The notes below the pieces were generated by a model. That model searched no databases, was not told the origin of the DNA, and worked only from the letters and a program-made list of their open reading frames with translations. From NCBI GenBank assembly GCA_963771565.1, contig CAVYUB010000006.1, positions 228,404 through 292,403 on the forward strand: 64,000 nucleotides of DNA. Direction: 5' to 3'. The DNA comes from an uncultured Acidobacteriaceae bacterium (GTDB lineage Bacteria > Acidobacteriota > Terriglobia > Bryobacterales > Bryobacteraceae). Numbering within the stretch: position 1 is the first letter of the stretch; each line of letters opens with the position of its first letter. This document shows, piece by piece, positions 13,840 through 36,974 of this stretch. Made by a program: the position numbers and the translations under genes.

Positions 13840-15429
13840 ATGGAGTCTTCGTGTATCCATCAGACCCTCCTTCCCGGCACTACCAAACTGTTCGCCGATT
13901 ATCTCTATGACTTCGAACGGGTAAAAAGCTTCTACGGCCACCACTTCCAAGACAACTCAACGTTTGCGGAGTCAGCAAGGCGAATCGATTTTCCAGACAA
14001 ACAACGCGCCCATCTGGTGGCGGCACTGCGCCAGCAGAACGGTGACTCGCCAGCGCTCTCGAAACTGGCTCAGCGCGGCACTGTGGCGGTTGTAACAGGT
14101 CAACAGGTCGGACTTTTCTCTGGACCAGCCTACACCATCTTCAAGGCATTAACTGCAGCAAGGCTCGCGCAGCACTTGAGCGAGCAGGGTATTCCGGCCG
14201 TGCCTGTCTTTTGGCTGGCCACCGAAGATCATGATCTTGCGGAGGTCAACCATACGTGGGTGTTCAACCATGCTGCCACGCCCGCTAAAATAACCATCCC
14301 GGAAGCCGATACGGCAGGCGGTCCAGTAGGCGAGGTGACGCTCGGGGAAGTACCTTTTCCGGAGTTGAGAGAAGCATTGGGGGACCTGCCATTCGCGGAT
14401 GAAGTCGTCGAGCGCCTTGAAGACGCATACGGTGCCCGTGCATCGCATAACCCGACGTTTGGCTCGGCGTTCCACTCCTTCCTACGTGGGCTTCTGAAGG
14501 ACTGCGGTCTGCTCTACCTGGACCCATTGGCGCCTGCGGTTCGTGAAATCGCTGTGCCGTTTATTAGCCATGCGGTGCATCGCGTTCCCGACTTGATTCA
14601 AGCGCTCCGACACCGCAATGACGAGCTTGTCGCGGCAGGTTACCACGCACAAGTCCATATCGACGACAGTACGTCGCTCGTGTTTCTGATCGAGCAAAAT
14701 AAGCGCATTCCATTGCGATGGAAGAATGGCCGCTTTTTCACAAGAGACGCTTCGTACACGCCGGACGATTTGGAAGCGTTCGACGGCCGCCTATCGCCTA
14801 ACGCGCTCCTGCGCCCGGTAATGCAGGATTATCTGCTGCCTACAGTTGCATACGTCGGTGGGCCTTCGGAGATCGCCTATATGGCGCAGGCCCAAGTGCT
14901 GTATGAAAATCTTTTAGGCCGCATGCCAGTTATTTTCCCGCGCAATAGCTTCACGTTGCTGAACTCGCGCGCAACGAAGCTGTTAGAACGCTACGGGCTG
15001 CGGACGCTTGACGTCATTGATCACAAGGAGAGAGTCGCGAGTCGGATCGCGGCCCGGCTAGTACCAGACCGGCTGAGTGACGAGTTTGCATCCGTCCGAT
15101 CGACAGTATGTTCCTCATTGGCAAGCTTGCAATCCGATTTGAAGGATTTCGATCCAACGCTCGACGCCGCGGCGAAGAAGAGCGCGTCTAAGATTCTTTA
15201 TCAGATCGATAAACTTTCACGAAAGACGGCACGGGAGAGACTGCGGCGCGATGAACGCGTGAAGCAGGATTCAGCTTACTTGATGAATCTGATCTTTCCG
15301 CGTCGCCATTTGCAGGAAAGATTTTACTCCATCGTCCCCTTCCTTGCCCAGCACGGGCTGGATCTGCCCCAGCGCCTAATGCAGGAGACGCAACTCGGCT
15401 GCCCAGATCATATGATCCGCACCGTTTAG
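13840..15429 (+). CDS. bshC: Bacillithiol biosynthesis cysteine-adding enzyme BshC
   Basis: The 529-aa product carries VAVVTGQQVGLFSGPAYTIFK and PVFWLATEDHDLAEVNH. These match the BshC signature (GGQQxGLxxGPLYTxxK, FWxAxEDHDxxExN). Confidence 0.8.
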   Translation: MESSCIHQTLLPGTTKLFADYLYDFERVKSFYGHHFQDNSTFAESARRIDFPDKQRAHLVAALRQQNGDSPALSKLAQRGTVAVVTGQQVGLFSGPAYTIFKALTAARLAQHLSEQGIPAVPVFWLATEDHDLAEVNHTWVFNHAATPAKITIPEADTAGGPVGEVTLGEVPFPELREALGDLPFADEVVERLEDAYGARASHNPTFGSAFHSFLRGLLKDCGLLYLDPLAPAVREIAVPFISHAVHRVPDLIQALRHRNDELVAAGYHAQVHIDDSTSLVFLIEQNKRIPLRWKNGRFFTRDASYTPDDLEAFDGRLSPNALLRPVMQDYLLPTVAYVGGPSEIAYMAQAQVLYENLLGRMPVIFPRNSFTLLNSRATKLLERYGLRTLDVIDHKERVASRIAARLVPDRLSDEFASVRSTVCSSLASLQSDLKDFDPTLDAAAKKSASKILYQIDKLSRKTARERLRRDERVKQDSAYLMNLIFPRRHLQERFYSIVPFLAQHGLDLPQRLMQETQLGCPDHMIRTV

Positions 15430-15474
15430 CTCTTCAACGCGCAATCAATTGTTATACTCAGGTTGATTCTGTGC

Positions 15475-15563
15475 GCTGGAGTGGCGGAATTGGCAGACGC
15501 ACGGGACTCAAAATCCCGCGGGATTCACTTCTCATGAGGGTTCGACCCCCTCCTCCAGCACCA
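15475..15563 (+). tRNA. tRNA-Leu (anticodon CAA), CCA encoded
   Basis: The acceptor stem GCTGGAG/CTCCAGC pairs perfectly. The D arm is TGGCGGAATTGGCAGACGC and the anticodon loop is CTCAAAA (CAA). A long variable arm (class II) and a T arm GGTTCGACCCC are present, followed by discriminator A and CCA. Confidence 0.9.
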
Positions 15564-15878
15564 TTGAAGTTGATCAAAGTTCCTTGACATGCTGTTACCG
15601 GGCGCTAAGTGATGCAGACGGCGCAAGCCTGAGTATTGCGTGCACTTGGATTACTACTAGTGGTTCCCGCTATGCTCAAGACCTTTGAGATTATGGACTT
15701 TCGCACAAGCCATCATTGAACGGCTGAGCGACGCTTCTTTGTTGGGCGCTTGAACTCCAAGTGGCATTTCGCAAACAAGCTGAGTTCTCTGGAGTATACG
15801 GCGTTTTACTGATCTGAACCGCTGTAAACGCAAATGGACAATCCCAGAGGAGCGGTTTCAATTCGAAAGCGATGATTT

Positions 15879-16039
15879 ATTGGATTTATAACGTGTAATG
15901 GATTGGGTATTGGATTGCAATATGGGTGATTGGATGTGTTCGTTTTGTCGATATGAGTGAGTGATCGGATGATGCAAACTTTTCATAGTGAAGGGATCTT
16001 AATTGGCAAATCGGTACCCACAGTACGCTCTAATCCATT
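15879..16039. promoter_or_regulatory. Phased ATTGGAT repeat array in the AT-rich spacer upstream of the NRPS A-T-TE gene
   Basis: ATTGGAT occurs at 15879, 15909 and 15929, a spacing of 30 and 20 bp. AATGGATT lies at 15897 with an inverted copy AATCCATT at 16032, and a degenerate ATCGGAT lies at 15964. All fall within about 200 bp of the ATG at 16077. A binding-site function is inferred only. Confidence 0.3.
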
Positions 16040-16076
16040 GTGTCTTGGTGCAATATTACGGTAACTCAGGAAGTAG

Positions 16077-18749
16077 ATGATAGAAGAGCTCGGCGAAACA
16101 GAAGCTGCGGGGATTAATTCAGATCTCGACCGGAAACCGGTAGAGACCGGAGCCGATTTACCGGTAGAGACCGTAGTCGATTTAATTGAGCGGCAGTGTG
16201 AACGGACGCCCGAGAAGGTCGCTGCGACTTTCGAAGGAGAGCAGCTGACCTATCGTGAGTTAGACTTGCGGGCGAACCGGCTAGCAAATTATCTTCGCGA
16301 CCGAGGTGTTGGACCCGAAACGCTGGTAGGGCTTTGTCTGGACCGATCCCTCACCATGCTGGTCGCGCTGCTCGGAATTCTCAAAGCTGGAGCGGCGTAC
16401 GTGCCTCTTGATCCGGATTTTCCGACTGAGCGGCTCCGCTTCATGCTGCAGGATTCGGGGACACGGTTGCTCATAACAGAGCGAAGATTCGTGGAAGTCC
16501 TGTCAGCCGAGGATTTAGAACTGGTTTGTCTGGATACGGAGTGGGATCGAATTCTGCTAGAAGAAGAGCCCGTAACCACGATCACGGCGCGTGGAGACGA
16601 TCTGGCATATGTAATTTATACCTCGGGATCGACTGGGCGGCCGAAAGGCGTGATGATCGAGCACGCAGCGCTTGCAAATCTGCTGCAGTCAATGGCGGAG
16701 GAACCAGGACTCGAGAGTTCCGACGTGCTGTTCGCTATTGCGACGATATCGTTTGACATTGCGGGTTTGGAACTATTCTTGCCCCTCACGGTGGGTGCTC
16801 GCGTGGTGATAGCGAGCCGCGCAGTGGCGCGAGATCCGGGACAACTGCTGCAGCTATTGAGAAGCTGCAAAGCCACTGTGATGCAGGCAACGCCAGCCAC
16901 CTGGCGGATGCTCTTGCAATCGGGATGGACAGGGCAAAAGGGTTTAAAGATTCTGTGCGGCGGCGAGGCGCTCTCAAGAGATCTGGCGGACGGATTATTG
17001 GATCGGGCGAAGTCGCTATGGAACGTCTATGGGCCGACGGAGACAACCATTTGGTCGACGGTAGGGCAAATCAAGAAGGACGCTCTCCCGATATCAATTG
17101 GACATCCTGTAGCCAGCACGCAAGTGTACATTCTCGACGAGCACGGCGAACCGTGCCCGGCCGGTGTGGCTGGGGAATTGTACATAGGCGGAGCCGGACT
17201 GGCGCGAGGATACTGGAAACAACCGGAACTGACAGAACAACGATTTATTGAAAATCCATTTGGGCTGCCGGGGTCCCGCTTGTATCGGACCGGGGACGAA
17301 GCGAGATTTCGCGAGGACGGCGAAATCGAGTGCCTGGGACGTAAGGACGACCAAGTCAAAATACGTGGATATCGGATTGAACTGGGAGAGATCGAAACAG
17401 TTCTGCGGCAGCAACCGGCCGTGCGAGACAGCGTAGTTGTGGCGCGAGACACGGGCAACGGCGAATCGCAGTTAGTCGCCTTCATTGTCCCGGCTTTGCC
17501 GGACGCTCCGCCCGATGGACCGAGTTTGCGCACCCGGCTCCAGCAGATCCTGCCGGAGTATATGATTCCAGCCGTTTTCGTGAATGTGGCCAAGTTTCCC
17601 TTGACGCCTAGCGGAAAGATTGACCGCCGTGCTTTGAATCTCGCTCCAGCGACAAATATCGGGAGCGGTTCAGACTTTGTAGCGCCCAGAACTGATCTCG
17701 AGAGAAAGCTTGTGGACGCTTTCGAGCGCCTATTAAACGTTCGGCCAATCAGTGTGACGGGTAACTTCTTTGCGCTAGGTGGCCACTCGCTGCTTGCGGT
17801 GAGGCTGTTTTCTGAAATAGCCAACCTTTGCGGGGGTAAGTTGCCGCCATCCACGTTGTTTCGGGCGCCCACGGTTGAGTTACTAGCCCAGATTTTGACC
17901 CAAGAAGGTGCCGGTAAAACATGGACATCCTTGGTACCTATCAAGACTTCAGGAACTCTGCGTCCCATATTCTGTGTACACCCTAAGGGCTCTAACTTGG
18001 TTCGATATCATGCGCTTGCCAATCTGCTCGGCCCAGACCAGCCGTTCTATGGACTGCAGTCCACTGCGCTAGACAAGAAACAGGCGGCTCACGTCAGCAT
18101 TGAGGGCAGCGCGGCTGAATATATTGAGGCGATTCGCAAGGTTCAGCCCCAGGGTCCTTACAATTTGGCGGGGTGGAGCTTTGGAGGAACGGTTGCCTTT
18201 GAAATGGCCCAACAGCTCCTTGCCAAAGGCGAAAAGGTCGGCTTGCTTGGGCTGATCGACAGTTTTTTTCCTGGAAGACCGGCACATTTCAACAGTCGGG
18301 CGTTGCCGGGCACTCCTCTGTGGAAAATTGATCTTTACTCGGGCCAGCTTCTATTTGCGCCGGGCGGCCAACGCCTGAGGCAGAGTTTGGGCTTGCTTAA
18401 GGATGGGCTTCAAACGGTCAAGACCCTAGTCCAGGCTCGCGCTGGGAAGCTTAAGCGGGACCGAACCCTGACTGTCGTACTCGCCGAAATTGAAGCAGCG
18501 AACGCTCGTGCCGAGCGGGAGTACGTACCGAAACCCTATCCCGGACGGGTTACGTTGTTTTGGTGCAGCGATTGGGCTTTTCGAGTATTTCACGACACTC
18601 GACTGGGCTGGAGTGAGCTTGCGGGAGGAGGGCTGGAAGTGCATGTTGTGCCCGGCAACCACAAGACAATGTGGGAGATGCCGAATGTAGGCACAGTTGC
18701 TGAAAAATTGAGAAGGTGCATACAAACGTCGCATGACATGGTCCCATAA
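16077..18749 (+). CDS. NRPS adenylation - carrier - thioesterase protein (A-T-TE), A domain predicted Gly-specific
   Basis: An RBS AGGAAG precedes the ATG at 16077. A-domain cores seen are LTYRELD, YTSGSTGRPKG, NVYGPTETT, GELYIGGAGLARGY, YRTGD, KIRGYRIELGEIE and PSGKIDR. The carrier motif is FFALGGHSLLAV. The TE carries GWSFGG and GNHKTM. Confidence 0.9.
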   Translation: MIEELGETEAAGINSDLDRKPVETGADLPVETVVDLIERQCERTPEKVAATFEGEQLTYRELDLRANRLANYLRDRGVGPETLVGLCLDRSLTMLVALLGILKAGAAYVPLDPDFPTERLRFMLQDSGTRLLITERRFVEVLSAEDLELVCLDTEWDRILLEEEPVTTITARGDDLAYVIYTSGSTGRPKGVMIEHAALANLLQSMAEEPGLESSDVLFAIATISFDIAGLELFLPLTVGARVVIASRAVARDPGQLLQLLRSCKATVMQATPATWRMLLQSGWTGQKGLKILCGGEALSRDLADGLLDRAKSLWNVYGPTETTIWSTVGQIKKDALPISIGHPVASTQVYILDEHGEPCPAGVAGELYIGGAGLARGYWKQPELTEQRFIENPFGLPGSRLYRTGDEARFREDGEIECLGRKDDQVKIRGYRIELGEIETVLRQQPAVRDSVVVARDTGNGESQLVAFIVPALPDAPPDGPSLRTRLQQILPEYMIPAVFVNVAKFPLTPSGKIDRRALNLAPATNIGSGSDFVAPRTDLERKLVDAFERLLNVRPISVTGNFFALGGHSLLAVRLFSEIANLCGGKLPPSTLFRAPTVELLAQILTQEGAGKTWTSLVPIKTSGTLRPIFCVHPKGSNLVRYHALANLLGPDQPFYGLQSTALDKKQAAHVSIEGSAAEYIEAIRKVQPQGPYNLAGWSFGGTVAFEMAQQLLAKGEKVGLLGLIDSFFPGRPAHFNSRALPGTPLWKIDLYSGQLLFAPGGQRLRQSLGLLKDGLQTVKTLVQARAGKLKRDRTLTVVLAEIEAANARAEREYVPKPYPGRVTLFWCSDWAFRVFHDTRLGWSELAGGGLEVHVVPGNHKTMWEMPNVGTVAEKLRRCIQTSHDMVP

Positions 18750-19596
18750 CGAGAGAGCTGGCTCGGTGGTCGACGATTTGGGCGCGGGCACAGCTTGCAG
18801 TGCAAGTACAGCCGATGCCACGGAGAGCCACTCCGTGTATCGGGACGTCTGGTCAGTACTGGCTGCATCGAGCGAGTGTGGAAAGGTTTTTGAGCAGAAC
18901 GGGTTGTTGATAGCCACCGCAGGCGGCAAGTGGTCTGTCATGAACACGGTGTTTTTGTCGAGGCCCGTTGCAACCGAAGCCGATCTTCGCGATCGAATTT
19001 CATTTGCAAAAGATTACTTCGAAGCGAAAAAACGGCTATGGCTGTTCATATTATTTAACGACTGGCTCGACCCTTCGATTCGACCAGAGCAGTTGTTGTG
19101 GGAGCACAGAGTTGCCTATGTGCAAGGTTGTTTCGGCATGCAAGCAACGAGAATACTCGAACCGGCAAGACCAGCTCCAGAACTGGTGTATCGGCTAGTC
19201 GAGAACGATGCAGAACGGCTGGAGTTTTCCCGTATCAACGCCGACAGCTACGGACTTTCAGAAGAGTGGGGGAAAGACATGGCGGCGTGGATCTCTCAAT
19301 GGCCGGAATCGACAATTCGGCTCTACATTGCTTACTCCGGCGAGAAAGCGGTTAGCTCGGCAATGGTGCATTTGAGAGGAGACGCCGCATTCCTGGGCTT
19401 CCTAGCGACACGGCAGGGACATCAAGGAAAAGGATATGGAGAGGCGATCGCGCGATATGCGCTCGCACGGGCAGAAGACGATTGGCATTTCAGCAAAACC
19501 ATCTTGCATTCCGCTCCGGGCAGTTTGTCCTTTTATCGCCGATTAGGTTATTCCGAAGTCGCAAGCTTTGGAACTTATCTAGGCGGTTGCGAATAG
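18733..19596 (+). CDS. GNAT family N-acetyltransferase (two-lobed), translationally coupled to the TE
   Basis: The ATG at 18733 overlaps the NRPS stop by 17 nt. The C-terminal lobe has the acetyl-CoA motif ATRQGHQGKGYGEAIARYAL and ends ...FYRRLGY. The exact start is uncertain. Confidence 0.7.
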   Translation: MTWSHNERAGSVVDDLGAGTACSASTADATESHSVYRDVWSVLAASSECGKVFEQNGLLIATAGGKWSVMNTVFLSRPVATEADLRDRISFAKDYFEAKKRLWLFILFNDWLDPSIRPEQLLWEHRVAYVQGCFGMQATRILEPARPAPELVYRLVENDAERLEFSRINADSYGLSEEWGKDMAAWISQWPESTIRLYIAYSGEKAVSSAMVHLRGDAAFLGFLATRQGHQGKGYGEAIARYALARAEDDWHFSKTILHSAPGSLSFYRRLGYSEVASFGTYLGGCE

Positions 19597-19613
19597 CGTA
19601 GGGCAAAGAGTAT

Positions 19614-20399
19614 CTAAGGCCGGCTCTTTAAGGTCTGGCTGAGGAGAGCATCCGGGTTAGCCACATTCGCGAGAACGTATTGCGACGGCTGGCAAGAGGA
19701 GAGCCGCAGGTTCCGTCTACCCCGTAACGCCAAAGCACCAATATATCCGTCATTCGGGCGCAAACTATAAAGCGACCATGACTGTGCTTCCGAAGTATTG
19801 CCGTCTATGTGCAAGAATGAGGGAACCTCACTTGGCCGCAAAGCTACCCTGAACGCATGCAGCGGAGCGGAAAGACCCTCACCTGTTGCTTTGATATAAG
19901 CCTCCTTGCGCGTCCAGCAGGCGAAGAAGGAATCGAGGCGCTGTGGCAATTCGACGCTTTCCAGATCGGCAGCTTCTTCGGCACAGAAGAAATGCCTGGC
20001 GATCGCACCGGTATCTGTCATATTCCGGATTCGTTCGACGTCAATGCCGAGTTTGCAGTCCAGCGCGAAAGCGTAAACAGCAAGATCCTCGGAGTGGGCA
20101 AGGTTAAATTGAAAGCGCTCGAGACCCGGCACCGACGGCTTTCCATATCTACCGTAAGCGAATTCGATCGCTCGCGGTGAGATTGCCAGGTACATTCCCA
20201 GAAATGTACGTAACAGACCGCGCGAAACAGAAAAACGTGTTCTTAAATGCTCAAAAGCAAAGCTCTGTGCACGATTTCTCTCGTCGGGGGAAAGTGTGGA
20301 GGATAGCTCGTCTACGCACAAGGCTGATGTGTCCAGGCTGACAACCCACACGTGTACATCGAGACCGCAGAGCCGCTGGGCCAGGTCCAAATCGGCCAT
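19614..20399 (-). CDS. Sfp-type 4'-phosphopantetheinyl transferase
   Basis: Motifs seen are FNLAHSEDLAVYA, GIDVERI and WTRKEAYIKATGEGL. Confidence 0.85.
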   Translation of the reverse strand: MADLDLAQRLCGLDVHVWVVSLDTSALCVDELSSTLSPDERNRAQSFAFEHLRTRFSVSRGLLRTFLGMYLAISPRAIEFAYGRYGKPSVPGLERFQFNLAHSEDLAVYAFALDCKLGIDVERIRNMTDTGAIARHFFCAEEAADLESVELPQRLDSFFACWTRKEAYIKATGEGLSAPLHAFRVALRPSEVPSFLHIDGNTSEAQSWSLYSLRPNDGYIGALALRGRRNLRLSSCQPSQYVLANVANPDALLSQTLKSRP

Positions 20400-20438
20400 G
20401 ATGCCGCTAGGTATTTCTCAACACCGCTCCGCTTCCCG

Positions 20439-21929
20439 TTAAGCGCTTGGCCTGATACGCTGACGCAACCAGCTCAGAGGAGATTTGCGAAGTACCTCGG
20501 CCTTGCCCAGGCTGTTTGAAAGGTCTGCGAGGCTCCGATTGGGATTCGCCGCAACGCTCGAAAGCACGTCGTTCCAAAGCTGCTTTATACGGGCTATGCT
20601 GTGCGAATCAAAAATATCGCGGCAGTAAGTGAATCGCCCGACAAGTTCGTCGCAATTCTCTTCCACCTGAAGATATAAATCAGTTTTCGGAACAGTATGC
20701 TCGAGATCGGTTTGAAGTATGCGCCATTCCTTCGATGGCAGAGCGGTGGATGGTTCAAAAACAAACATGACTTGGAACAACGGCGTGATAGAAGGGACGC
20801 TGCCGTTTCCAAATCGCCTGACGAGCGCATCAAATGGCACATCGTATGTCAGGGCTTGTAACGTCGTTTCACGAACCCGTTGAATCAAATCCAGAAAAGA
20901 ATCCTGAGGCGAGAGTTTAGTTCGGAGCACAACTGTGTTTATGAAAAGACCTAGCAGGTTTTCCGTCCCGAGCTGCTTACGAGTTGAAATAGCGCTACCG
21001 ACAACCTGATCCGTATCATTCGCGCATTTGTAGAGCAGTAGATGCAAGCCTGCCAAAAGAGTCATGAAGAGTGTTGCTTGACAACTTTCGCCAAGGTTCT
21101 TGAGCGCCAGTGTGAGATCTTTTGAGATGCGAAAAGGGGTGGAGCCCCCGTCGAGTTCCCTATCCATCGATCGTGGCCGGTCAAGAGGCAAGTTCAGCAC
21201 CGGCAACCCTCCCTCGAACTGCTCGTCCCAGAACTGCAAGCGAGACTCTAGGCCACGATGGGCGAGCGATTTACGCTGCCACTCCGCGTAGTCGGGGTAT
21301 TGGAACGGAAGAGGCGGCAGCGAGGGTTCCTTGCCCTGCACAAAGGCGACATAGCAGGCTTGAAGCTCGGACACCAAAATTTGATAGACCGATACACCGT
21401 CGGCAATGAGGTGGTGAGCGACGAGTAGCAACCGGAAATCTTCATCGGCGACACGTATAAGACGAACGCGGAATAGCGGCGCCCGTTCGAGATCAAATTG
21501 CAACCGTGAATCCTCGGCCAGCAATTCAGCCACTCGTTTTTCACGGTGCTTCACAGGCAATGCGCGCAGGTCGGCAAAGGGTAAGTTGACGCGCAGCTCC
21601 GGGGCGACGTTTTGGAACACTCTGTCGCCTCTCAGTTCAAAGCTTGTACGCCAAGCTTCATGGCGTCGAAGAATTTCGTTCAAGGAGCGCTCAAATGCAG
21701 GAATGTTAAGCTCGCCCCTGTACTGCAACGTAAATGGCTCGTTATATAGTTCGGTGCGACCCGCCAAGGCAGAGTGCAACCAAACTCTGCGCTGTTCCTC
21801 GGACGCCTCGACACTCGCGCCATCCGGGCGTTTTGCAATGGCGTGCTCAGCCGAAGCAGGTATGTTTCGCCTGCGCTCCAAGTACCTTGCGATTAATGCC
21901 GACCGTGGATCACTCGCTGATGTTGGCAT
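20439..21929 (-). CDS. Free-standing NRPS condensation domain protein
   Basis: The 496-aa product has a C1-like SEEQRRVWL and the active site AHHLIADGVS (HHxxxDG). It also has C5-like LLGLFINTVVLR. No A or T domain is attached. Confidence 0.85.
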   Translation of the reverse strand: MPTSASDPRSALIARYLERRRNIPASAEHAIAKRPDGASVEASEEQRRVWLHSALAGRTELYNEPFTLQYRGELNIPAFERSLNEILRRHEAWRTSFELRGDRVFQNVAPELRVNLPFADLRALPVKHREKRVAELLAEDSRLQFDLERAPLFRVRLIRVADEDFRLLLVAHHLIADGVSVYQILVSELQACYVAFVQGKEPSLPPLPFQYPDYAEWQRKSLAHRGLESRLQFWDEQFEGGLPVLNLPLDRPRSMDRELDGGSTPFRISKDLTLALKNLGESCQATLFMTLLAGLHLLLYKCANDTDQVVGSAISTRKQLGTENLLGLFINTVVLRTKLSPQDSFLDLIQRVRETTLQALTYDVPFDALVRRFGNGSVPSITPLFQVMFVFEPSTALPSKEWRILQTDLEHTVPKTDLYLQVEENCDELVGRFTYCRDIFDSHSIARIKQLWNDVLSSVAANPNRSLADLSNSLGKAEVLRKSPLSWLRQRIRPSA

Positions 21930-22024
21930 GAACTCACCTACTCATTATCAGATGAGCATCGACAGTTACAGTTACGGATACTTTGCTGGGTGCTGACACA
22001 AGGTTGGCCACCGTGGCTCAAAAG

Positions 22025-23803
22025 CTACTCCAGTGAAACCCCAGCTGATGTCTGTATGATTTGATTTTCGATTTGGCGCGCGAGGGCCTCAATGGTTGGA
22101 GATTCGAAGACAGAACGTATGGGGAGATCGACCCCAAAGGCACGTTGTACGTTGACGATCAGTTGAACCGCTAACAAGGAGTTGCCTCCGAGCTGGAAAA
22201 AGTTGTCTCTGAATCCGATGTTGGGTTGCTTAAAAATCCTGGATAGAATCGAGGCAAGTTCGAGTTCAATTTCCGTCCCAGGCTCCGAAGTCGAGTCTGT
22301 GGCGTTGAGCAAGATGGAACGATCCGGAAACGGCAGAGCCGAGTAATCGATCTTCCCGTGTTGTGTAAGAGGCATAGTTTCAAGGGAGACGAAGAGCTCG
22401 GGAATCATGTACGCGGGAACGTGAAGAGCAAGGTGATCGCTAAGATCTGAGGCCGAAACGGGAGCCCTCGGCACGATATATGCAACAAGTTGTTTTTCGA
22501 CGCCATCGCCGACCGTAGTGACAGCCGCGGCGGATATTGCAGGATGACTGCGGAGGGCAGTTACAATCTCCGCCGGTTCGATACGATATCCCCGAAGTTT
22601 GACCTGATCATCAATTCGACCACAGAACTCAAACTCTCCGTTCGGCAATCTCTTCCCGATATCACCAGTTCGATATAAACGCGATCCGCCTGCGAAACCA
22701 GGGATGGTAATAAAGCGTTCGTTGGTCAGATCAGGGCGCCCAATATAGCCCGCCGCCACGCCAGCTCCAGCAATAAACATTTCACCGGGTTGTCCGTCGG
22801 ACAGTGGTTGCAAGCTGGAGTCCAAAACGAACACCTCAGTTCCGGTGATTGGGCGGCCAATGGAAGGATGTTCGCTCTCTTTATCGGCCGGCCTAACGAC
22901 AGCGGAAGTCGTTATAACCGTGCACTCCGTAAGCCCATAACTGTTCACAACCTGAAACGGAAGACCGGGAGGAGGAAAAAGACGCAGAGCTTCCCCGCCC
23001 GTTTGCAAATACCGCAATTTCGTTTCTTCTGGCCACTCAAGCGTGAGCAGCTGCTCAACCATAAGAGTGGGCGCTTCGCAGATGGTAATCTCTCGCGAAA
23101 CGAGATAGTCGCGCAAGCGCTCGGGGAGAAGATATGCCCAGCGGTCCAGCGGGTATATACACGCACCGGTTGACAGGGGCGGCCAGATCTCTGCTATGGA
23201 AACGTCAAACGTGAGCGCCCGAAGTTGCGTGCCTCGATCCTTGTGAGTCAGACCGAACGCGTTCTTATACCAGGAGAGGAAATGGCTCAAATTTCCATGG
23301 GTTACGGCTACGCCCTTAGGAGTGCCCGTGGAACCGGATGTGTAGATGACGTAAGCAACATCGTCGGGTGCAATTTGGGCCTCGCCGGCACGCGTGAGAA
23401 ATGGCGGTTCGAAAGTTGCGGTCGAAGGTTCTGTAAATTCCTCGAAATGAAGCAGCTTCCACGCGCCGGCCGGAATACGGGAGCTAATTACTTCTGGAGC
23501 TACTACGATTGGCGCGTCAGCGTCAGCCAGCATGTGGCGGAGCCGTTCAACAGGAGAGGAGGGCGCAACAGGCAAATATGCGCAGCCTGTCTTCCAGGAC
23601 GCTAACGCAGCAAGAACCAGGTGAGAAGTGTTATCGGTACACACGGCAATGGGGCAGCCGCGCCTTCCCTCGAGCATTGCTGCGAACCTGGAAGCCATGG
23701 CGGAAGCTCGTGTGACGATCTCACCATAAGTGATCTTTTCGTCTCCTAAAACAATTGCCAGGGCGCGAGCTTGATGCTCCGCTTGGAAATTGAAACGGTC
23801 CAA
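22025..23803 (-). CDS. NRPS adenylation - carrier protein (A-T), unknown substrate
   Basis: Cores seen are ITYGEI, YTSGSTGTPKG, NSYGLTECT (variant A5), GEMFIAGAGVAAGY, YRTGD, KLRGYRIEPAEI and QHGKID. The carrier motif is FFQLGGNSLLAV. The apparent start is a TTG at 23803, so the start is uncertain. Confidence 0.85.
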   Translation of the reverse strand: MDRFNFQAEHQARALAIVLGDEKITYGEIVTRASAMASRFAAMLEGRRGCPIAVCTDNTSHLVLAALASWKTGCAYLPVAPSSPVERLRHMLADADAPIVVAPEVISSRIPAGAWKLLHFEEFTEPSTATFEPPFLTRAGEAQIAPDDVAYVIYTSGSTGTPKGVAVTHGNLSHFLSWYKNAFGLTHKDRGTQLRALTFDVSIAEIWPPLSTGACIYPLDRWAYLLPERLRDYLVSREITICEAPTLMVEQLLTLEWPEETKLRYLQTGGEALRLFPPPGLPFQVVNSYGLTECTVITTSAVVRPADKESEHPSIGRPITGTEVFVLDSSLQPLSDGQPGEMFIAGAGVAAGYIGRPDLTNERFITIPGFAGGSRLYRTGDIGKRLPNGEFEFCGRIDDQVKLRGYRIEPAEIVTALRSHPAISAAAVTTVGDGVEKQLVAYIVPRAPVSASDLSDHLALHVPAYMIPELFVSLETMPLTQHGKIDYSALPFPDRSILLNATDSTSEPGTEIELELASILSRIFKQPNIGFRDNFFQLGGNSLLAVQLIVNVQRAFGVDLPIRSVFESPTIEALARQIENQIIQTSAGVSLE

Positions 23804-24389
23804 AACAGATTCGAAGACTAGAGGGGCCGAATGAGTCTCACTGCGACCGGAACTAAGGTGTTGAATCCCGAGCCATTTGTCATTTGATAATTCATTTCCG
23901 ATTCACAGAATGCAGCGCTTCGACATAAGCCACAACCAATGCCGGCTAAGCCGTAAATGAAGCTTGTCAGCCTGCGCAAAAAGAGAAATCAGCGCTCATG
24001 CCGCTTGAAACGATTCAACGTCGCCAATCGGGACCTAAAGGCAGTATAGTGACCAGAGTAACACGAAAACGCATGCTGTCCAAAGGACGGTAAGTTGCTC
24101 CCGAGCGGAACGGATTTGCGACCTAATTGAAACACACGGTACCACCCAGTACCAAAGCCACTTGCACTCATTTCTGAAACCCCTTAACTTGTTACTACAC
24201 CCTCTTATTGTTGGTCAGAAAATGAAGTCCTCGGGACGTGTCCGAAATCGTTCTTACCCACTCGGCGATACTCACACAGAGTTCACAAAGTAGGGTTACG
24301 TATGAGGTCGGGCAGGAGCTCGGCGAAGCAATAGCGCGAGTCTCCGGCTTGAAGGACAGAGATATATATGGGTGGGGAGGAGACTTGTT

Positions 24390-25882
24390 ATGGCAAACGA
24401 AAAATTGGGTGCATCGCACCGGCGCAGCTTTTTAAAAGGGATCGCAGCGGGGGGGCACCGCCTTAGTAACAGGAGGTGTTTGGGGCCCCTTCACAGCACA
24501 GGGTCAGACACCGCCGAGCTGCCCGCCAGCGCCTGTGAATGGGACTCCGTTCAAGCCTGGCCAAGACACACGCCCTGTCGGACAGCGCAAATCAATCAGC
24601 GCGCTTACGTCGGGACAGATCGGGGAACTTAGGAGCGCGTTCGCTAAGCTGCGGGCGTTACCCTCAACAGATAACCGTGCGTGGGTGATACAGGCAGATA
24701 TGCACGCGCTCTACTGCCAAGCCTGCAATCACGATACGATTCAATCCGTTCATGGGTCTTGGAACTTTTTCCCTTGGCATCGTGCTTTCCTCTACTACTT
24801 TGAACGTATTCTTGGCTCGTTGGTGGGTGACACCCATTTCCGCCTCCCTTACTGGGATTGGGAAAACTACCGTTTCCTACCGGAGATCTACGCAATCCCG
24901 GCAAACTCGAGCAATTCTCTTTATGATGCGAATCGTTATGCCCCGATTAACCAGGGTGTGAACTTACCCTCGAACGACGGAACGGCCGCGCGCATTGCTC
25001 TGCTCGATGGAATCACTGACTTTGCAACCTTCGGCGGAAAGGCCCCGGGTACGTCAGGCGCGGCTGGAGCGTGCGAAAGCAATCCGCATGACCCGATCCA
25101 CGACGACATTGGATTGCATACATCTCCATTTCATGACATGGGCCATCTTGGTTTTGCTGCCCGCGATCCTATATTTTTCGCTCATCATTGCAACCTAGAC
25201 AAAATATGGGCATATTGGAATGCGCTTGCGGCTCACAGTACACCCCCGACCTATGAGAATCCAACAGACCCGGCATTTCCTTTCCGAGCGTTGGAATTTC
25301 TATGATGAGAATCAGCAAGTGGTGTCGATGAGTGCGGCTGACGTCCTCAACTATACGACCAATCTCAGGTACAGTTATCCAACCCCACCGGCTAACCAAA
25401 GTTATTTTGCTTCAACACAAGCGTCGCCGGAAGCTGCATGCACACAGCCACGTACAGCACCAATAGTGAGCACTTATGCGGCCAGGCTAGTCCATTCCGG
25501 CAGTGGCCTTTAGAGGCCGTTGCCTGGCCCGACTCTGGACGTAAGTTACACCGTGAAAACAACTGTGATTAAGGCGGTCAGAGAGCAGAGCTCAGTAGCG
25601 ATCGTACTTCGAGGCGTCCCTGTACCTGATAACGCGACCGGGGTTTTCGACATCATGTCAGCTCGTCGGAGCAGCATGAAGTACGTCGGAACGTTGGCGA
25701 TCGTTGCGGACACGATGCGGATGACCTTCCCGAAGACTGTAGTGTTGGATGCAACGGATGCGGTTGACGACTTATTCGATACGTCCAATCCAGCCAGGCT
25801 TACGCTTGTCCCGCGCGAGGGAAACAGCACCTTCCTCCTGCAAGCAGAGGATGTCGAAATACGCATGATAACGCGCAAGTAG
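24390..25882 (+). pseudogene. Tat-exported plant-type polyphenol oxidase / tyrosinase with DWL- and KFDV-like C-terminal domains; two frame breaks and one in-frame TAG
   Basis: An RBS GGGGAGGAG precedes the ATG at 24390. The Tat signal is SHRRSFLKGIAAGG. CuA is MHALYC...HGSWNFFPWHRAFLYYFE and CuB is NPHDPIHDDIG...FFAHHCNLDKIW. These are followed by FLSERWNFYDENQQVV (DWL-like) and GVFDI...LTLVPREG (KFDV-like). The breaks are a G7 run at 24449-24455, a slip near 25280, and a TAG at 25511-25513. Confidence 0.8.
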
Positions 25883-26074
25883 CGGGCACGCAGCTACCGG
25901 GAAGTACGATCAGCGATTCGGCTCGGTCCAGCGCGCATTATTTGGGCTCTGCCCCATAATCCGCGAATACGGGGACCTTACCACCTGGATTGAACCCGGC
26001 CTATACGCATTCATTGTCTGCGATCTAACGCAGTTTAGGTTCGTGCCGATAGACATTTCGAAGCCGGATTCGAA

Positions 26075-28479
26075 ATGCTCCAGATCACAAGCACGTACTT
26101 GCGGAGGGAATGGGCAAACCTTCCATTACGCACTAAAGGCATCGTCGTTCTGCTTGCTGCCACTCGTAGCCTTATTGCTGAATGGCGTGGCGAATAGCCT
26201 GGTTGCGTCTGAACAAGGGAGAGCACAATCCTGGGTGATCCATACTCTCGATGTGCGCGTGTTACTTGAGCACGTGGTTGCTGACATGGCCATTGCCAAT
26301 ACTGATAGCTTCACCTTCAAATTGACGAAGGATAAGAATTTACTAGAGGAATGCCGAAAGGCCGCGGCGCGCGTACCGATAACAATCAACGCACTCCAGG
26401 CTCTGACTACGGATAACTACAAACAACAAGCGCGGATCACTGAGCTTCGGAGGGTTGCAGCACATAGAATTCAATATGTAATTGGCTTAGCGCATCAGTC
26501 AAGAGGAGCAACCTACCGCAATAGCGATTCAAGGACAAGTCTCTCAAAGCGGACTCTTGCAGATCATCGCCGATATGGATCGGGAGGAGGCTTCTCTTCT
26601 TGCCGTCCGTACTCAGCGATTGAATAGAATTCAGCATGTGCTTCCGTTTGTTGTGCCCGTAGCTTTGGTACTTGGGATAACCGGCGCGCTCTTAGGGATT
26701 TGGTTATTTCTCACAGGCATTGTTCGGAGAACGGCCAAACTCGGGCAGCAGATTTCTCTCCTGGCCGACGGAATTCCAATCAAAGAGGTGGATCAGCATC
26801 GGGATGAGATAGGCACCGTCGCTTCAGGGATTGTTAGAACTAGCCATCTATTGGCTGAAACGGCGGGTGCGCTTAAGGACGCGAATGCGAGGTTAGCCGA
26901 GCAAATTCGTCACGCTGAGCAGGCCAACTGTGCAAAGAGTGAGTTTCTGGCCAACATGAGCCACGAGATTCGCACCCCCATGAACGGGATCATAGGTATG
27001 ACGGATCTGGTTTTGGCGATGCCAGTGAATGCTGACCAGCGTGAATGCCTATCCATGGTTAGGGCCTCTGCTGATGGGCTCATGACGATCATCAACGATA
27101 TCTTGGATTTCTCCAAGATTGAGGCCCGTAAGCTCGCCCTTGATCCAATCGTTTTTGTTCTGAGAGACACAGTAGGGGATGCTGTGAAGGTCTTGGCGAT
27201 GCTGGCAAACAAGAAGGGCCTTAAGCTAGCGTGCCATATACATCCCGACGTTCCCGAGATGCTCGTGGGTGATCCCGGGCGTATACGTCAGGTAATCATG
27301 AACCTGATCGGCAATGCCCTCAAGTTCACCGAGACGGGCGAGGTCGTCCTGAAAGCCGACTTGGAGTTGTCGACCGCAGAAGAAATAAGAGTTCACTTCG
27401 CGGTTCGGGATACAGGGATTGGCATTCCGCCAGAAAAGCAAAAAACCATCTTCAATGCATTTACCCAAGCTGATTCGTCGACCACCCGGCAATATGGCGG
27501 CAGCGGGCTGGGCCTCACCATCTCGGCGCGATTGATCGAGATGATGGGCGGAAAACTTCGCGTCGACAGCGAAGTAGGGAGCGGCAGCACATTTCACTTC
27601 AGCGCAAGATTCGATCCAGCGCCCGCAGCCTCGAAAAAAACGGTTTCAGACCCGATCCAACTCGGCAATGTGTCCACGTTATTGATTGACGACAACGCGA
27701 CCAGTCGGCGCATGATGTGCGAATCGCTTATGAATTGGGGCTTACGTTTCACGCTTGCGCACGACGAGCCAGCTGCGCTCTTTGCCATAGAACGGGCTAT
27801 CGCTGCGGGCGAGACATTTCGATTGCTCATTCTGCATATGTCGGCCGTCGACGGATTCGCTTTGGTAGAGCGGATTCGGCGGTATCCCGAATCGGGCAGC
27901 ACAAAGGTAATCATGCTGAGCTCGGCCGGTCAGCGCGGCGATGCGATACGCTGCAAAGAATTAGGCATCGCTGCTTACTTGAGCAACCCGGTTGAACAAT
28001 CCGATTTACGTGAATGTATCTTGCGCGTGCTCCGAGAGGGGGATTCACATCGCGCTCCGGTAAGTCTCGTAACCCGCCATTCGCTGCGGGAATCGCGAAT
28101 TCTGCTGGCCGAAGACAGTTTTGTGAATCAGCGCCTCGCCACGCGCCTACTCGAGAAAGAAGGGCATAGAGTGGTGGTAGCGAATAACGGACGTGAAGCG
28201 GTCGCGGCCATAGAAGAGGGTCTGTTCGATGTTGTGCTCATGGATATTGAGATGCCGATTATGAGCGGTTTGGAAGCTACTGCGACGATCCGCAAGAAGG
28301 AAATGCTTAACGGCCGGCACGTCCCGATCATCGCCATGACCGCGCATGCTATGAAAGGTGACCGTGAACGGTGTCTCGCGGCCGGCATGGACGGTTACGT
28401 TTCGAAGCCTATTCAGCCGCAAGAACTGTACGATGCGCTTGAAAACGTTACGATTGATTCTGTGCGTACTCCTGCCTAG
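26075..28479 (+). pseudogene. CHASE3-domain hybrid sensor histidine kinase with pseudo-receiver and receiver domains; two frame breaks
   Basis: The likely start is the ATG at 26075 (MLQITSTYLRREWANLPLRTKGIVVL), with slips near 26150 and 26550. The CHASE3-like region is WVIHTLDVRVLLEHVV. Kinase motifs are the H box SHEIRTPMNGIIGM, the N box NLIGNALKFT, and G boxes DTGIGI and GGSGLGL. The first REC domain has LLILHMS (acceptor Asp replaced by His). The second has DVVLMDIEMPIMSG. Confidence 0.85.
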
Positions 28480-33365: not shown

Positions 33366-34001
33366 TTATTCGAGCGATGCGTCGACGTACACGATATGCA
33401 CACGCCTGCGCCTCTCCTTTAACCACGCGTCCAATGCGCGGTCGATACGCTCCTCAACCAGCTTGTTTCGAATCGACTCCCGTAAAGCTTCGAGGCCAGG
33501 TGCGGGACCCGAATGATCCGCTTTCCAGTTTGCGATTTCACGCTCATATGCACTCTGGATCTCCGACTCAGAGATATCAACCTCAGGCTGAAAGCGATAT
33601 TCAATGAACCGCAATGTAGTAAGCTGCAAAGCCAGGTGATCTCTTAAAGTACTTTCGGTCAAACCGTACGTTGCAAGCGCCTCACTGAATTGGGCGGCAC
33701 TGCCGAACCCGCTGCGAATTTGTTCAAAATACTTACTCACATCTTCGTCATCAGGGAGAGGGTACCGGCTCACTTCCATTTCGCGCCTGACGATCAACTG
33801 CTGCACCAGGCGATCGGCCGCTGCACGCCGTGTATTCAGATCACGAACGATAGGTTGGCGATTTAAGAATGCGGTAACTCGAAGTTCTTCATCCAACTGT
33901 AGTTCTGTTATTGCTTCACGCCCTACAGTAACGGCGAGACGATCGACAACCTCCGCCGATGCGGCCAACGCCAAGCACAGAATGATCAACAAACGATGCA
34001 C
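33366..34001 (-). CDS. SurA N-terminal-domain-like periplasmic chaperone
   Basis: The 211-aa product has a signal peptide and then VVDRLAVTVGREAITELQLDEELR, a SurA_N-like helical protein. No parvulin domain is seen. Confidence 0.55.
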   Translation of the reverse strand: MHRLLIILCLALAASAEVVDRLAVTVGREAITELQLDEELRVTAFLNRQPIVRDLNTRRAAADRLVQQLIVRREMEVSRYPLPDDEDVSKYFEQIRSGFGSAAQFSEALATYGLTESTLRDHLALQLTTLRFIEYRFQPEVDISESEIQSAYEREIANWKADHSGPAPGLEALRESIRNKLVEERIDRALDAWLKERRRRVHIVYVDASLE

Positions 34002-36974
34002 TAGAATGCCTGTCCCAACGAAATGTGGAATTGGAACGCATTAATCTTTTGAACGGTCGCAACAGCGGTTCCATTCAAGTAATCTTGTTCTGTTCCCTTC
34101 AGACCGAAAAAGCGTGGCGCATCAGGACTAACTGACAAATCAACACGAAACGGGCCGATCGGAGTACGATAGCGGATGCCAAAGCCAACCGACTGCACCA
34201 TGTAGTTGAAATCCTGCAAATTCTCTTGGCGGAACCGGAAACTTATATCGCCGAGCGTACTGTACACATTGCCTGCATCGTGGAAAAGTACACCGCCCAG
34301 GTTGTCTCCATACAATGGAAAGCGCAGCTCCATGTTGTTTATGAACATGGCGTTACCGCCAATTGGAAAGCCCGTTTTTAAATCGCGCGGACCGGCCTGG
34401 AAATCCGGGAAAGCACGCAGCGAAGTGGAACCACCTGAATAGATTCGCTCAGCTAGCGGGATACTCGGCCGCCCGCCGGTCCGCGTGATTACCCCAAATT
34501 GCGTGCTGCGCGCGAATACCAGATCGCGGCCAAGCTGATAATACGTCGCGTTGCGAAACAGCCCACGCCCAAATTCCGTCTGAGACCCAAGAAACCCCGG
34601 AGCGTAGCCAATATCTATGGTCGTGTAAATGCCGTGATGGGCGTCCGTCGGATCGTCACGCTTGTCTTGAATTATCGAGAACTCCGCCATCCCCACTGTT
34701 TCGGGCTGCGAAAGAAGCGGTACGAGCAATTGATCAATTTTGAGGTTGGCCAGCGTTACATGGCGAAACACGAACCGATATTGCACCGTATAAGCGCGGG
34801 AGAGTTTTTGACCGAGTTGCAGCGAACCTTCGAGCCGATGTGCCGTGAAAGTTCGGATATCGTTTGAATCGTCAAAAAGCGCAGTGGCTGTGAAGTTCAA
34901 CCTATCGTTCGAAACGAACTGCGGAATAAAATACGTCAATGCGGCACGTTGTTCAATCGTCGAAATTGCCGTTTGAAGCCCCAACGTCTGACCTAGTCCA
35001 AGAAAATTAATGCGGCTGATCCCGAATGCAAAACGCGGTGCGAAGCCCGTTGTACCGGCCGGATTGTCGAGACTCGTGACGCCTCCGCCTATTCGCCCAA
35101 TTTGGGCGCCTACCCCAACGTTCATCGAGTAATGCCGCGCTTCGTCGAAATCGTACAGCACATACTTTTCGTCTTCATCTCCATCGGGATCCTGTATACC
35201 TGTATTGACGCGCGCAAAGATGCCAAGATCGTACAAGCGTCTTTGGCTTTCCGTGCTCTCAGCCAGCGATAGTGGCTCATCCTTTGTCAATTCGATGCGA
35301 TCGTAAACCAGCTTCGGACGAGTCGTTTCAAGGCCGCTGATAAGCACGCCTCGCACATACTTGCGCGGACCCGAATGCAGAATGTACTGGATGTTGACGT
35401 GGTTTGCTTCCTCAGCCGGCGCCACTCGATAGTCGAATGTCGCGTTGAGATAACCGCGATTGTAAAAGTAATTCAAAAGGTTGTCGCGGTCGTTGGCAAC
35501 ATTGGTCTCGCTGAATGGCTGCCGGGGCAGAGACGCGACCATGGAACGTAGCCTCGAAGCGTCATTCGCACTCACTCCCTCGATAGACAATTCCGATACA
35601 AACCATTGGACTCCCTCTTCAATACGGATCAAAACGGCCAAATGATTTCTTACGCCCCGGTAATCATCTTCCGTTCTCGACGTCACTTTCACATCGCGGA
35701 AGCCGTTTGAGGTGTACAAGTTTTCAATGGCCTGGACATCCTCTCGCAGATATACATCGCTGTATCGGCCATAAGGAAAGCGCGGGAACTCCGCGGCCTG
35801 CAAATATAGCCGTTCCCGAATCGTCTGCGCTGAGAAATAGTGATTGCCCTCGATGGCCAGATATACAAATCTATGTCGCGTGCCGGGATTGACCTGGTAA
35901 GTAATGATTCGCTCTTGTGATGCCGCCGCTCTTTGTTCAACCCGATAACTTACTTGCGCCTCGAAGTACCCTCGTGATTCAAGGTATTGCGCGATGTTGC
36001 GCTCGCCTTCGACGAGCAGGTCCGTATCAATGGAACGCTCTTGAAACACGGGTACAAGCTGCTTAAGTTTCCCGCTGCTGATTCTTGCGCCCGTTGCGCG
36101 TATAGCAACAGCGCTGCCCAGCGGCGATGTCAATTGATGGCTTCACGGTGTTTGTTTGATCGTGATAATCGAGACGCGCAAGCGACACCCGTGAACCAAG
36201 CCGGTTTTGCTTCTCATACAAGTGCCGCACGTTATCCAAACCTCGTCGAAGCCGGGCTTCAGTGAATTCCTGCCAACCCAGCAGCCCATACAAGCGCTTC
36301 CAGTGTGTCGCTCGAATTATGCTCTGGCCGGAACGCTCGGGATCTCCTGCAATCGCAGGGTCCTCGAAACGCGCGCGCTTTCCTGAAACAACATCGAAGC
36401 TTAAGTTCGCTTGCTCAATTTCTGGATCGTAATCAACATTCGCCTCGACGGTCGCGTGAAAATAACCATTTTGCCGAAGCAAATTTCTTAAAGAGTTAAG
36501 TGCCTCAGCCTTGTCGCTCTCTACATAGGGCAAGCCAAGCCGCAGCTTCGTTGCGCTTGCTAGCTGGCCGCTATTCGGTGGCTCTTTTACGCCGGAGATG
36601 ACGACATGGCCTACGAAGTAAGCTCGTTTGGTAAGGAATCTCAGCGCCACTCCGTCGCCGAATTCCGTCGCGTCTACGGCGAGGTCCGAAAATCGTCCTG
36701 TTGCGAACAGGTCCTGAATCGCTTGCCGCAGATCGCGCTCATGAAATACAGATCCGCTCTTGAACGGCAGGGCACGGGCCAGCTCCGTACTGGTAAGGGG
36801 CTGGTCCGCGGGTTCAAACTGGATGCTTACGATCCGCTGTCCTTCGTACTTCCTTGCCGCCTCGAGCAACGCTGAGTCTTGGTCTTGAGCAGCAAGAACC
36901 GCAACCGGCAACACGCTCGATACGTACAGCAAGACAGCCGCGCACTTCCACTTAACGGAGCTACGAAAAGCCAA
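34001..36974 (-). pseudogene. bamA: Outer membrane protein assembly factor BamA; one frame break
   Basis: The N-terminal fragment 36063..36974 carries a signal peptide and POTRA repeats (IVSIQFEP...). Fragment 34001..36133 carries more POTRA repeats and the Omp85 barrel, ending ...FQFHISLGQAF. The slip is near 36110. Confidence 0.85.

Follow-up and report, generated by a model that had tools for sequence, protein, structure and literature searches.

The stretch analysed here (the window) is 64,000 nucleotides of contig CAVYUB010000006.1, positions 228,404 to 292,403, from an uncultured bacterium that GTDB places in the Bryobacteraceae. Part of it encodes a compact nonribosomal peptide synthetase (NRPS) whose adenylation (A), carrier (T), condensation (C) and thioesterase (TE) domains are spread over three proteins. 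Beside these are genes for a phosphopantetheinyl transferase (PPTase) and a GNAT protein. A sequence-only reading, made without database searches, had described five open reading frames (ORFs) here, and the ORF listing and Pfam return all five at the same coordinates and with the same domains. A sixth cluster gene, which that reading missed, encodes a tyrosinase and is a pseudogene in this genome. The genes, with the flanking tRNA and with protein lengths in amino acids (aa), are:

15475-15563, plus strand: tRNA-Leu(CAA), found by ARAGORN and Rfam; it flanks the system and is not demonstrably part of it.
16077-18749, plus strand: A-T-TE protein, 890 aa; Pfam AMP-binding (2.7e-98), PP-binding and Thioesterase.
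18733-19596, plus strand: GNAT gene, 287 aa; Pfam GNAT; overlaps the A-T-TE gene by 17 nt.
19614-20399, minus strand: PPTase of the Sfp/HetI type, 261 aa; Pfam ACPS and AASDHPPT_N.
20439-21929, minus strand: stand-alone C protein, 496 aa; Pfam Condensation only (PF00668, 7.6e-92).
22025-23803, minus strand: A-T loading module, 592 aa from a TTG start; AMP-binding and PP-binding.
24372-25882, plus strand: tyrosinase/polyphenol-oxidase pseudogene with a twin-arginine translocation (Tat) signal (RRSFLKGIAAGG) and PPO1_DWL; divergent from the A-T gene, which it adjoins.

The finer points of the layout also agree with the sequence-only reading. The stop codons of the two convergent operons are 17 bp apart, the GNAT gene overlaps the A-T-TE gene as described, and tRNA-Leu lies 514 bp before the A-T-TE start (0.5 kb had been claimed). 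Pfam bears out the C, T and TE assignments, and the C domain has no covalent link to any A or T domain. The A domains, the carrier serines, the HHxxxDG motif of the C domain, and the Ser and His of a type I TE are all in place. From these sequences, this is a real NRPS locus, and it probably makes a small molecule derived from X-Gly, where X is the amino acid loaded by the A-T protein. A dipeptidyl product of this kind was also one of the earlier proposals, and it is still the best reading of so compact a dimodular NRPS. The parts of the three NRPS proteins to which we refer below are:

~16164-17651, ~17682-17921 and ~17952-18746, plus strand: A, T and TE domains of the A-T-TE protein (Pfam).
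17778-17792, 18171-18188 and 18654-18671, plus strand: GGHSL, GWSFGG and GNH motifs of the A-T-TE protein (motif search).
16077-16172, plus strand: acidic N-terminal extension of the A-T-TE protein, 32 aa (from charges and from alignment to fused C-A-T-TE proteins).
~22304-23803 and ~22028-22288, minus strand: A and T domains of the A-T protein; the carrier Ser is in GGNSL at 22175-22189.
23804-23890, minus strand: 5' end of the A-T gene in its ancestral form; homology by tblastn reaches 23890 (with DNA comparison to relatives L085 and L092).
21864-21908, minus strand: N-terminal helix of the C protein, PRSALIARYLERRR, residues 8-22 (N-terminal alignment, and helix 8-22 in the model).
20442-20516, minus strand: basic C-terminal tail of the C protein, ending ...KSPLSWLRQRIRPSA; its last 25 aa have a net charge of +5.

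Both A domains exceed the NCBIfam cut-off for amino-acid adenylation domains (TIGR01733, 317 bits), with 467 bits for A-T-TE and 363 bits for A-T. Each has AMP-binding and AMP-binding_C, and each has K at position 10 of its Stachelhaus code. We took these codes from 189 A domains aligned with MAFFT; in other loci, the same columns gave the well-known codes of Thr, Ser, Asp, Val, Orn, beta-Ala, His and Tyr, which validates them. The code of the A-T-TE protein is DILQLGVIWK, which upholds the earlier assignment to glycine, and many fused C-A-T-TE relatives have the same or nearly the same code (DILQLG[LMV]IWK). The TE (PF00975, 3.3e-29) has the Ser of GWSFGG and the His of GNH; its catalytic Asp was not located.

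To find relatives, we scanned the species-representative genomes of GTDB, and we then mapped the domains of 84 loci (these and further relatives have L numbers below). The wider family (L007-L070 and L084; for instance, L035 6967-14607 and L038 6744-14119) has an operon with a separate A-T protein, a P450, and a C-A-T-TE protein (sometimes C-A-T with further modules), usually along with a PPTase. Its hosts include Acidobacteriota, Sphingomonas and other Alphaproteobacteria, Verrucomicrobiota, Actinomycetota, Chloroflexota and Dormibacterota. Almost without exception, the A domain for loading has the Leu code DAWFLGNVVK. The second A domain is mostly specific for Gly, and otherwise for His, beta-Ala, Val, Ser or Ala. 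In some members the P450 is itself fused in frame, giving P450-C-A-T-TE (~1800 aa) or P450-A-T-TE (~1330 aa) proteins (L017 8615-14032, L026 6793-12198, L009 2341-6330, L023 3080-7093). And in a Bryobacterales metagenome-assembled genome (MAG), the P450 is followed by an 835-aa C-T-TE protein with no A domain (L053 8612-12397).

C and A-T-TE are encoded separately in about nine Bryobacteraceae-like contigs. In a neighbor-joining tree of C domains, the window's stand-alone C protein groups with those of L085, L086, L088, L090, L005 and L001, and with L003, L004 and L006; this group is nested inside the fused C-A-T-TE clade. (The same tree places L019 and L048 as a second, independent split.) The window's C protein ends exactly at the canonical C-domain end of the fused proteins. 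The relatives' A-T-TE proteins begin with the C-A linker ("LPLLDAKER...DW..."), so A-T-TE is the 3' part of a former C-A-T-TE gene. The break sits at the start of the linker, just upstream of a W-N-x-T-type motif that the A domain has kept. In the window, the first ~21 residues of the relatives' A-T-TE proteins are missing, and a 24-nt tandem duplication (16136-16183, copies 92% identical) encodes PVETGADL and PVETVVDL, of 8 aa each. Judging from the alignment, the N-terminal extension is a remnant of the ancestral C-A linker. On this comparison of sequences, the locus is best described as a lineage-specific fission product of a widespread and uncharacterised dimodular NRPS. The sequence-only reading knew of no characterised cluster with this layout, but the design is not unprecedented. 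It arose by gene fission in a common A-T / P450 / C-A-T-TE cluster, and one relative has even re-fused two of the pieces as A-T-C.

L003, L004 and L006 are intermediates that keep the P450, with first-A codes of DVMEQGNVVK, DVIEHGNVVK and DALFLGNVLK, respectively. In the Bryobacteraceae subclade, the P450 has been lost (it is absent from the loci of this clade, and tblastn found no match anywhere in the 64-kb window), and the first-A code is DVAE(Q/H)G(S/N)V(I/V)K. The set recurs in relatives: tyrosinase on the minus strand, then A-T, C and PPTase on the plus strand, then GNAT and A-T-TE on the minus strand, is the order in L088/L089 and L090 (C identity is 69-89% in the subclade, and 69-87% for L085, L086, L088/L089, L090, L005 and L001). 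L086 has this order without the PPTase, and in L085 the order holds up to the end of the contig. L005 and L001 have the cluster with an added PanP-like decarboxylase and a decayed GNAT. L092, L093 and L094, which come from three JGI samples and are 85-91% identical to the window at the nucleotide level, keep the tyrosinase intact and have A-T and C joined in frame as a 1092-aa A-T-C protein, a fusion that P0001 shows as well; in L092 (6683-9961), a ~160-nt deletion joins the two genes. The order of the proteins in the assembly line follows from these fusions: A-T is the donor, C comes next, and A(Gly)-T-TE is the acceptor, because T-C is covalent in L092 and C-A is covalent in the ancestral family.

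The C protein appears from its sequence and its predicted structure to be an elongation domain of the LCL type. HHLIADG is at 21396-21416, and across 42 homologues H172, H173, D177 and G178 are invariant or nearly so. Its sequence matches in PDB include DhbF (192 bits), Txo1/2 (~182), TycC6 (179), LgrA (145) and PvdL, versus 109 bits for SrfA-C and 91 bits for TycB, both of which are DCL domains. The AlphaFold2 model (pLDDT 87) has the same elongation C domains as its structural neighbors in Foldseek. The window's C protein also nests among C domains that act after A-T proteins without an epimerization domain. There are many stand-alone C homologues of ~495 aa, and the labelled ones are Bryobacteraceae MAG proteins with ~70% identity.

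How would the separate proteins find each other? Nearly all C-bearing proteins of the family have an N-terminal motif that looks like a basic amphipathic helix ("S-DAKR-LLEKYLRG" in the wider family), and in the C protein L17 and R21 are nearly invariant. We propose that this helix is the docking site for the separate A-T protein. The separate A-T proteins of the family end in short acidic tails, and the helix is common to fused and unfused C proteins, so delivery of the donor in trans would be ancestral. At the other end, the basic tail ("SPLxWxRQR", +5 to +7) occurs only in the split Bryobacteraceae clade, and the fused C-A-T-TE proteins lack it. It is a short helix in the model (residues 484-491, low confidence). 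Most members of the split clade have an acidic A-T-TE N-terminus (-3 to -8), and the first 40 aa of the window's A-T-TE protein have a net charge of -8. We propose that this acidic N-terminus is the docking partner of the C tail, and that the two together may replace the lost covalent link between C and A.

The first A domain has changed its specificity pocket. The ancestral Leu code is not found in the window's A-T protein, which has DVAEQGSVIK instead, and W239, F278 and L299 of the ancestor have become A239, E278 and Q299. From the sequence, the new pocket would fit a larger polar or cationic side chain, whether Tyr/DOPA-like or Orn/Lys/Arg-like. The ornithine code DVGEIGSIDK shares 6/10 positions with DVAEQGSVIK, which lacks D331. 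We rejected any firm call of X, as the small residues at 239, 301 and 322 suit a Tyr-like and an Arg/Lys-like substrate equally well.

We think it likely that the locus encodes a dimodular NRPS, split into three proteins, that makes X-Gly as follows. The Sfp-type PPTase would prime both carrier domains. The A-T protein would activate and carry X, which is no longer the ancestral Leu, in a pocket predicted to be larger and polar or acidic; the A-T-TE protein would activate and carry Gly. The LCL-type C protein would then bind the X-S-T donor through its conserved N-terminal helix, and its basic tail would meet the acidic N-terminus of A-T-TE to bind the Gly-S-T acceptor, so that X-Gly-S-T is formed. 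The TE may release a linear dipeptide, a diketopiperazine or an oligomer, and the sequence does not tell which. The tandem GNAT, which is translationally coupled, would probably N-acylate an amine of the product, as tailoring or for self-protection. And the Tat-exported tyrosinase would probably oxidise a phenolic product or substrate outside the cytoplasm.

The closest NCBIfam model to the PPTase is HetI, at 175.6 bits (under the cut-off of 370). The GNAT protein has only 24 homologues among 5.8 billion sequences, which is essentially the cluster's own family. Its AlphaFold2 model (pLDDT 88.6) has a tandem GNAT fold: Foldseek gives TM scores of 0.5-0.67 to 4ius, VipF, MshD and PamZ, and the clavulanate tandem GNAT is also among the best matches. 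There are two GNAT-like lobes, as in tandem GNATs such as MshD, VipF and PamZ. The acetyl-CoA loop QGKGYG (within 19411-19440) is in the C-terminal lobe only, and Pfam's Acetyltransf_1 matches residues 177-273 only. N-acylation, for tailoring or self-protection, is a plausible role for a protein with this predicted structure. The GNAT gene is decayed in L001 and L005 and only remnants are left in L092, L093 and L094, so it is dispensable in three lineages. Separately, a BshC homologue just upstream of tRNA-Leu (13840-15429) and the MshD-like fold raised the idea of a link to bacillithiol, which we rejected: there are relatives with the cluster and without bshC.

Orthologues of the tyrosinase are intact and lie beside A-T in L001, L005, L086, L088, L090 and L092, and the gene is found in relatives wherever the contig reaches. 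Its movement with the cluster across genomic contexts argues that it is a member. In the window it is broken by frameshifts near 24455 and 25275 and by a 21-nt insertion with an in-frame TAG (25511-25513). That the tyrosinase appears where the P450 vanished weakly suggests that an aromatic residue is oxidised. Downstream of the tyrosinase, L001 (5230-6099) and L005 (5291-6151) have UNK289, a protein of 289 aa with no match in Pfam or NCBIfam. It is absent from the window and the other relatives, and we do not count it as a member of the cluster.

A stronger version of our proposal would hold that the split in the C-A linker is kept stable by newly evolved docking between the C tail and A-T-TE, and also that the product belongs to a new class of redox-active or melanin-forming dipeptides. 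Taken jointly, these two claims are unlikely to be right.

We also considered that the free C protein might work like VibH, which uses the soluble amine norspermidine. The C protein would put X onto a soluble amine to give an aminoacyl-amine, and A-T-TE would act on its own, for instance like NikP1, by which a single amino acid is loaded, modified and hydrolysed. The sequence-only reading had left room for this, since the C protein is physically free-standing, and a PanP-like decarboxylase in the L001 and L005 clusters could supply an amine. But the C protein resembles LCL domains, and the C domains to which it is orthologous are joined covalently to the acceptor module; A-T-TE, too, is co-conserved wherever contigs reach far enough. 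VibH (1L5A) was not among the 39 PDB sequence matches at E<=1e-10 nor among the top 50 Foldseek matches of the model, and LCL elongation domains lead both. The cluster has no enzyme that would tailor Gly-S-T. We rejected the decarboxylase as an amine supplier for this system, since neither the window nor most relatives have it. We consider the soluble-amine scheme to be very unlikely. (As for the decarboxylase itself, it resembles PLP-dependent aspartate 1-decarboxylases of the PanP type, with 571.6 bits versus a cut-off of 606, and is found at L001 12349-13995, L005 12339-13988 and L034 4629-6302; L001 and L005 are Bryobacteraceae MAGs. In the cyanobacterium Argonema, a 53% homologue is flanked by NRPS genes with beta-Ala A-domain codes, and presumably supplies beta-alanine there.) Another scheme keeps the same order of proteins and differs at the last step: the TE would use a nucleophilic side chain of X to oligomerise or cyclise several X-Gly units into a cyclic oligomer, as in enterobactin synthesis. 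The ancestral arrangement of a separate loaded carrier, C-A-T-TE and a PPTase is indeed the EntB/EntF type, A-T-TE has EntF among its top matches in NCBIfam, and either the ancestral P450 or the polar pocket of today's A-T could provide the nucleophile. The TE sequence does not by itself separate hydrolysis from cyclisation or oligomerisation. We rate iteration as quite improbable, and favor the release of an X-Gly product by the split dimodular NRPS.

A different concern is whether this copy of the cluster works at all. The sequence-only reading held that all five genes are intact amid broken neighbors. This does not hold for the A-T gene. Compared with L085 and L092 (86-89% aa identity), it has lost 1 nt near 23871, which puts the conserved ATG (23884-23882) out of frame, and the frame of this ATG runs into a stop after 22 codons. 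In the frame that encodes the domains, the first possible start (ATG, GTG or TTG) is TTG 23803; starting there costs 27 conserved N-terminal residues, and no obvious Shine-Dalgarno sequence precedes it. Furthermore, ~10 frame breaks lie in ~56 kb of sequence beyond the cluster, compared with 1 within its 7.7 kb, where ~1.5 would be expected, so the contrast between the NRPS genes and their neighbors is not significant. The split genes outside the cluster include:

390-1560: FG-GAP protein.
2240-4821: TonB-receptor-like outer-membrane protein.
26043-28479: CHASE3 hybrid sensor kinase.
34001-36974: bamA-like Omp85/POTRA gene.
51987-53902: GMC oxidoreductase, in three pieces.

Each consists of adjacent ORFs in different frames, as in an indel-rich assembly or a pseudogene-rich genome. 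The window's cluster might be a decaying, non-functional remnant whose remaining ORFs simply have no further lesions yet. The lost A-T start, the density of breaks, which in the cluster is not below expectation, and the broken genes listed above all fit this, and the 21-nt insertion in the tyrosinase, which carries a stop, favors real decay. However, the catalytic motifs of all five ORFs are intact across 7.7 kb. Also, in the protein that starts at TTG, the A-domain match of Pfam opens at residue 7, which would still allow a complete A domain to be made. Several breaks are in or beside short homopolymers (such as a G-run at 24455 and a T-run at 25275), and one splits a bamA-like gene, which is of an essential type; these are better explained by assembly errors. 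On balance, decay of this copy is a serious possibility that we nevertheless doubt. With a frameshifted A-T start and a tyrosinase pseudogene, the system may be impaired in this genome.

Several observations weigh against our proposal of a split NRPS for X-Gly, and we list them together. The window copy lacks the conserved A-T start and is surrounded by many broken genes. To our knowledge, DVAEQGSVIK matches no known code, and the product is predicted from sequence. The case for docking consists of charge and conservation, and the C tail has pLDDT <50. Just the three NRPS genes are constant: the GNAT is decayed or lost in some relatives, and L086 has no PPTase. And the cluster includes no transporter or regulator. 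Apart from these points, we found no riboswitch near the cluster (an Rfam scan of the whole window found only tRNA), and a scan for promoters and terminators gave counts no higher than expected from shuffled sequence.

Among relatives, the cluster is found in at least three genomic contexts. In L001, L086, L088 and L090, it lies between gpmI-eno-rpsU and either tRNA-Val or tRNA-Gln; in L092, it is near an IS1595 transposase fragment and a gene with a TIR domain; and in the window, it lies between the CHASE3 kinase and tRNA-Leu-bshC. This fits an accessory, mobile status. The sequence-only reading had argued for accessory acquisition from the nearby tRNA gene, and this argument is weak. No integrase was seen at the window locus, the 3' end of tRNA-Leu is not repeated elsewhere in the window, no att-type direct or inverted repeats were found over 15300-27000, and the GC content of the locus does not deviate. 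With these hallmarks of an island not found in the window, tRNA-targeted integration is not supported. In relatives, the A-T-TE end of the cluster is also near a tRNA gene, with tRNA-Val at ~0.7 kb or tRNA-Gln at ~2.7 kb (L086 15284-15360, L088 16520-16596, L001 20207-20284). The recurrence of nearby tRNA genes is suggestive of tRNA-associated mobility, though without integrases or att repeats.

The parent family of small NRPSs spans at least five phyla of soil bacteria, and we found no product for it in the literature. The natural series from C-A-T-TE to C + A-T-TE, and on to A-T-C, has a mapped breakpoint and candidate docking tails; where modules tolerate cuts matters to NRPS engineers. If the docking pair is real and portable, then it would offer a natural means of operating C and A domains in trans. 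The polar pocket of the first A domain, the loss of the P450, and the gain of the tyrosinase and the GNAT together suggest that the chemistry of the product has changed. If it is in fact a redox-active or melanin-forming dipeptide, then it would come from Acidobacteria that are abundant in soil.

We found no characterised counterpart in NCBIfam or the literature, either for the window's variant or for its ancestral family, in line with the sequence-only reading. No NCBIfam equivalog reaches its cut-off, and the named NRPS models (EntF, AusA, MxcG, SolG and PvdL-type) are all far below theirs. Our literature searches for the A-T / P450 / C-A-T-TE family and for tyrosinase-linked NRPSs in Acidobacteria returned nothing relevant. 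The nearest system is the A(Leu)-T / P450 / C-A-T-TE family itself. Like the window, it has a separate loading A-T protein, an orthologous C domain with the docking-type N-terminal helix, a second module that is commonly for Gly and has a TE, and an Sfp-type PPTase in the operon. In this family, C is fused to A-T-TE, a P450 lies between the genes, and the loading code is DAWFLGNVVK. In the window, C has a gene of its own, the A-T-TE gene has been flipped to form a convergent operon, no P450 remains, the loading code has become DVAEQGSVIK, and the cluster has gained a tyrosinase and a tandem GNAT. Of the five features that define the ancestral family, the window lacks three: the Leu code, the P450, and the fusion of C to A-T-TE.

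Condensation in trans is not new in kind: VibH and the dissociated NRPSs are established examples. A passage of PMC11546977 (citing Keating et al. 2002) gives VibH of vibriobactin synthetase as a stand-alone C protein. Like VibH, the window's C protein is free-standing and takes an acyl- or aminoacyl-S-carrier donor in trans. In contrast to VibH, it goes back to an elongation C domain, whose acceptor is bound to a carrier. It is not detectably closer to VibH than to other C domains, and it has a cognate A-T-TE that is co-conserved and was fused to it ancestrally. Pacidamycin is made by a dissociated, type II-like NRPS with the A-T-TE protein PacP and free-standing C proteins. The ORFs of the dissociated NRPS for streptothricin are summarised in PMC11546977. 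As in the window, these systems use single- or di-domain proteins and condense in trans; but their clusters are actinobacterial and much larger, their acceptors are nucleosides or aminosugars, and our analysis shows no link to the window at the level of sequence.

Enterobactin synthetase (EntE/EntB, EntF and EntD) resembles the ancestral form, in that a separate loaded carrier donates to a single C-A-T-TE protein and the cluster includes a PPTase. The window differs by having no A domain for an aryl acid and no isochorismatase-ArCP, and by its split-off C; the match of A-T-TE to the EntF model is 462 bits, far under the cut-off of 2400. Finally, engineered exchange units (XUs) split or fuse NRPSs within the C-A linker. 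The XU concept is mentioned in PMC11546977. The break in the window also lies in this linker, at its start, but it is natural and non-covalent, while an XU is an engineered covalent fusion.

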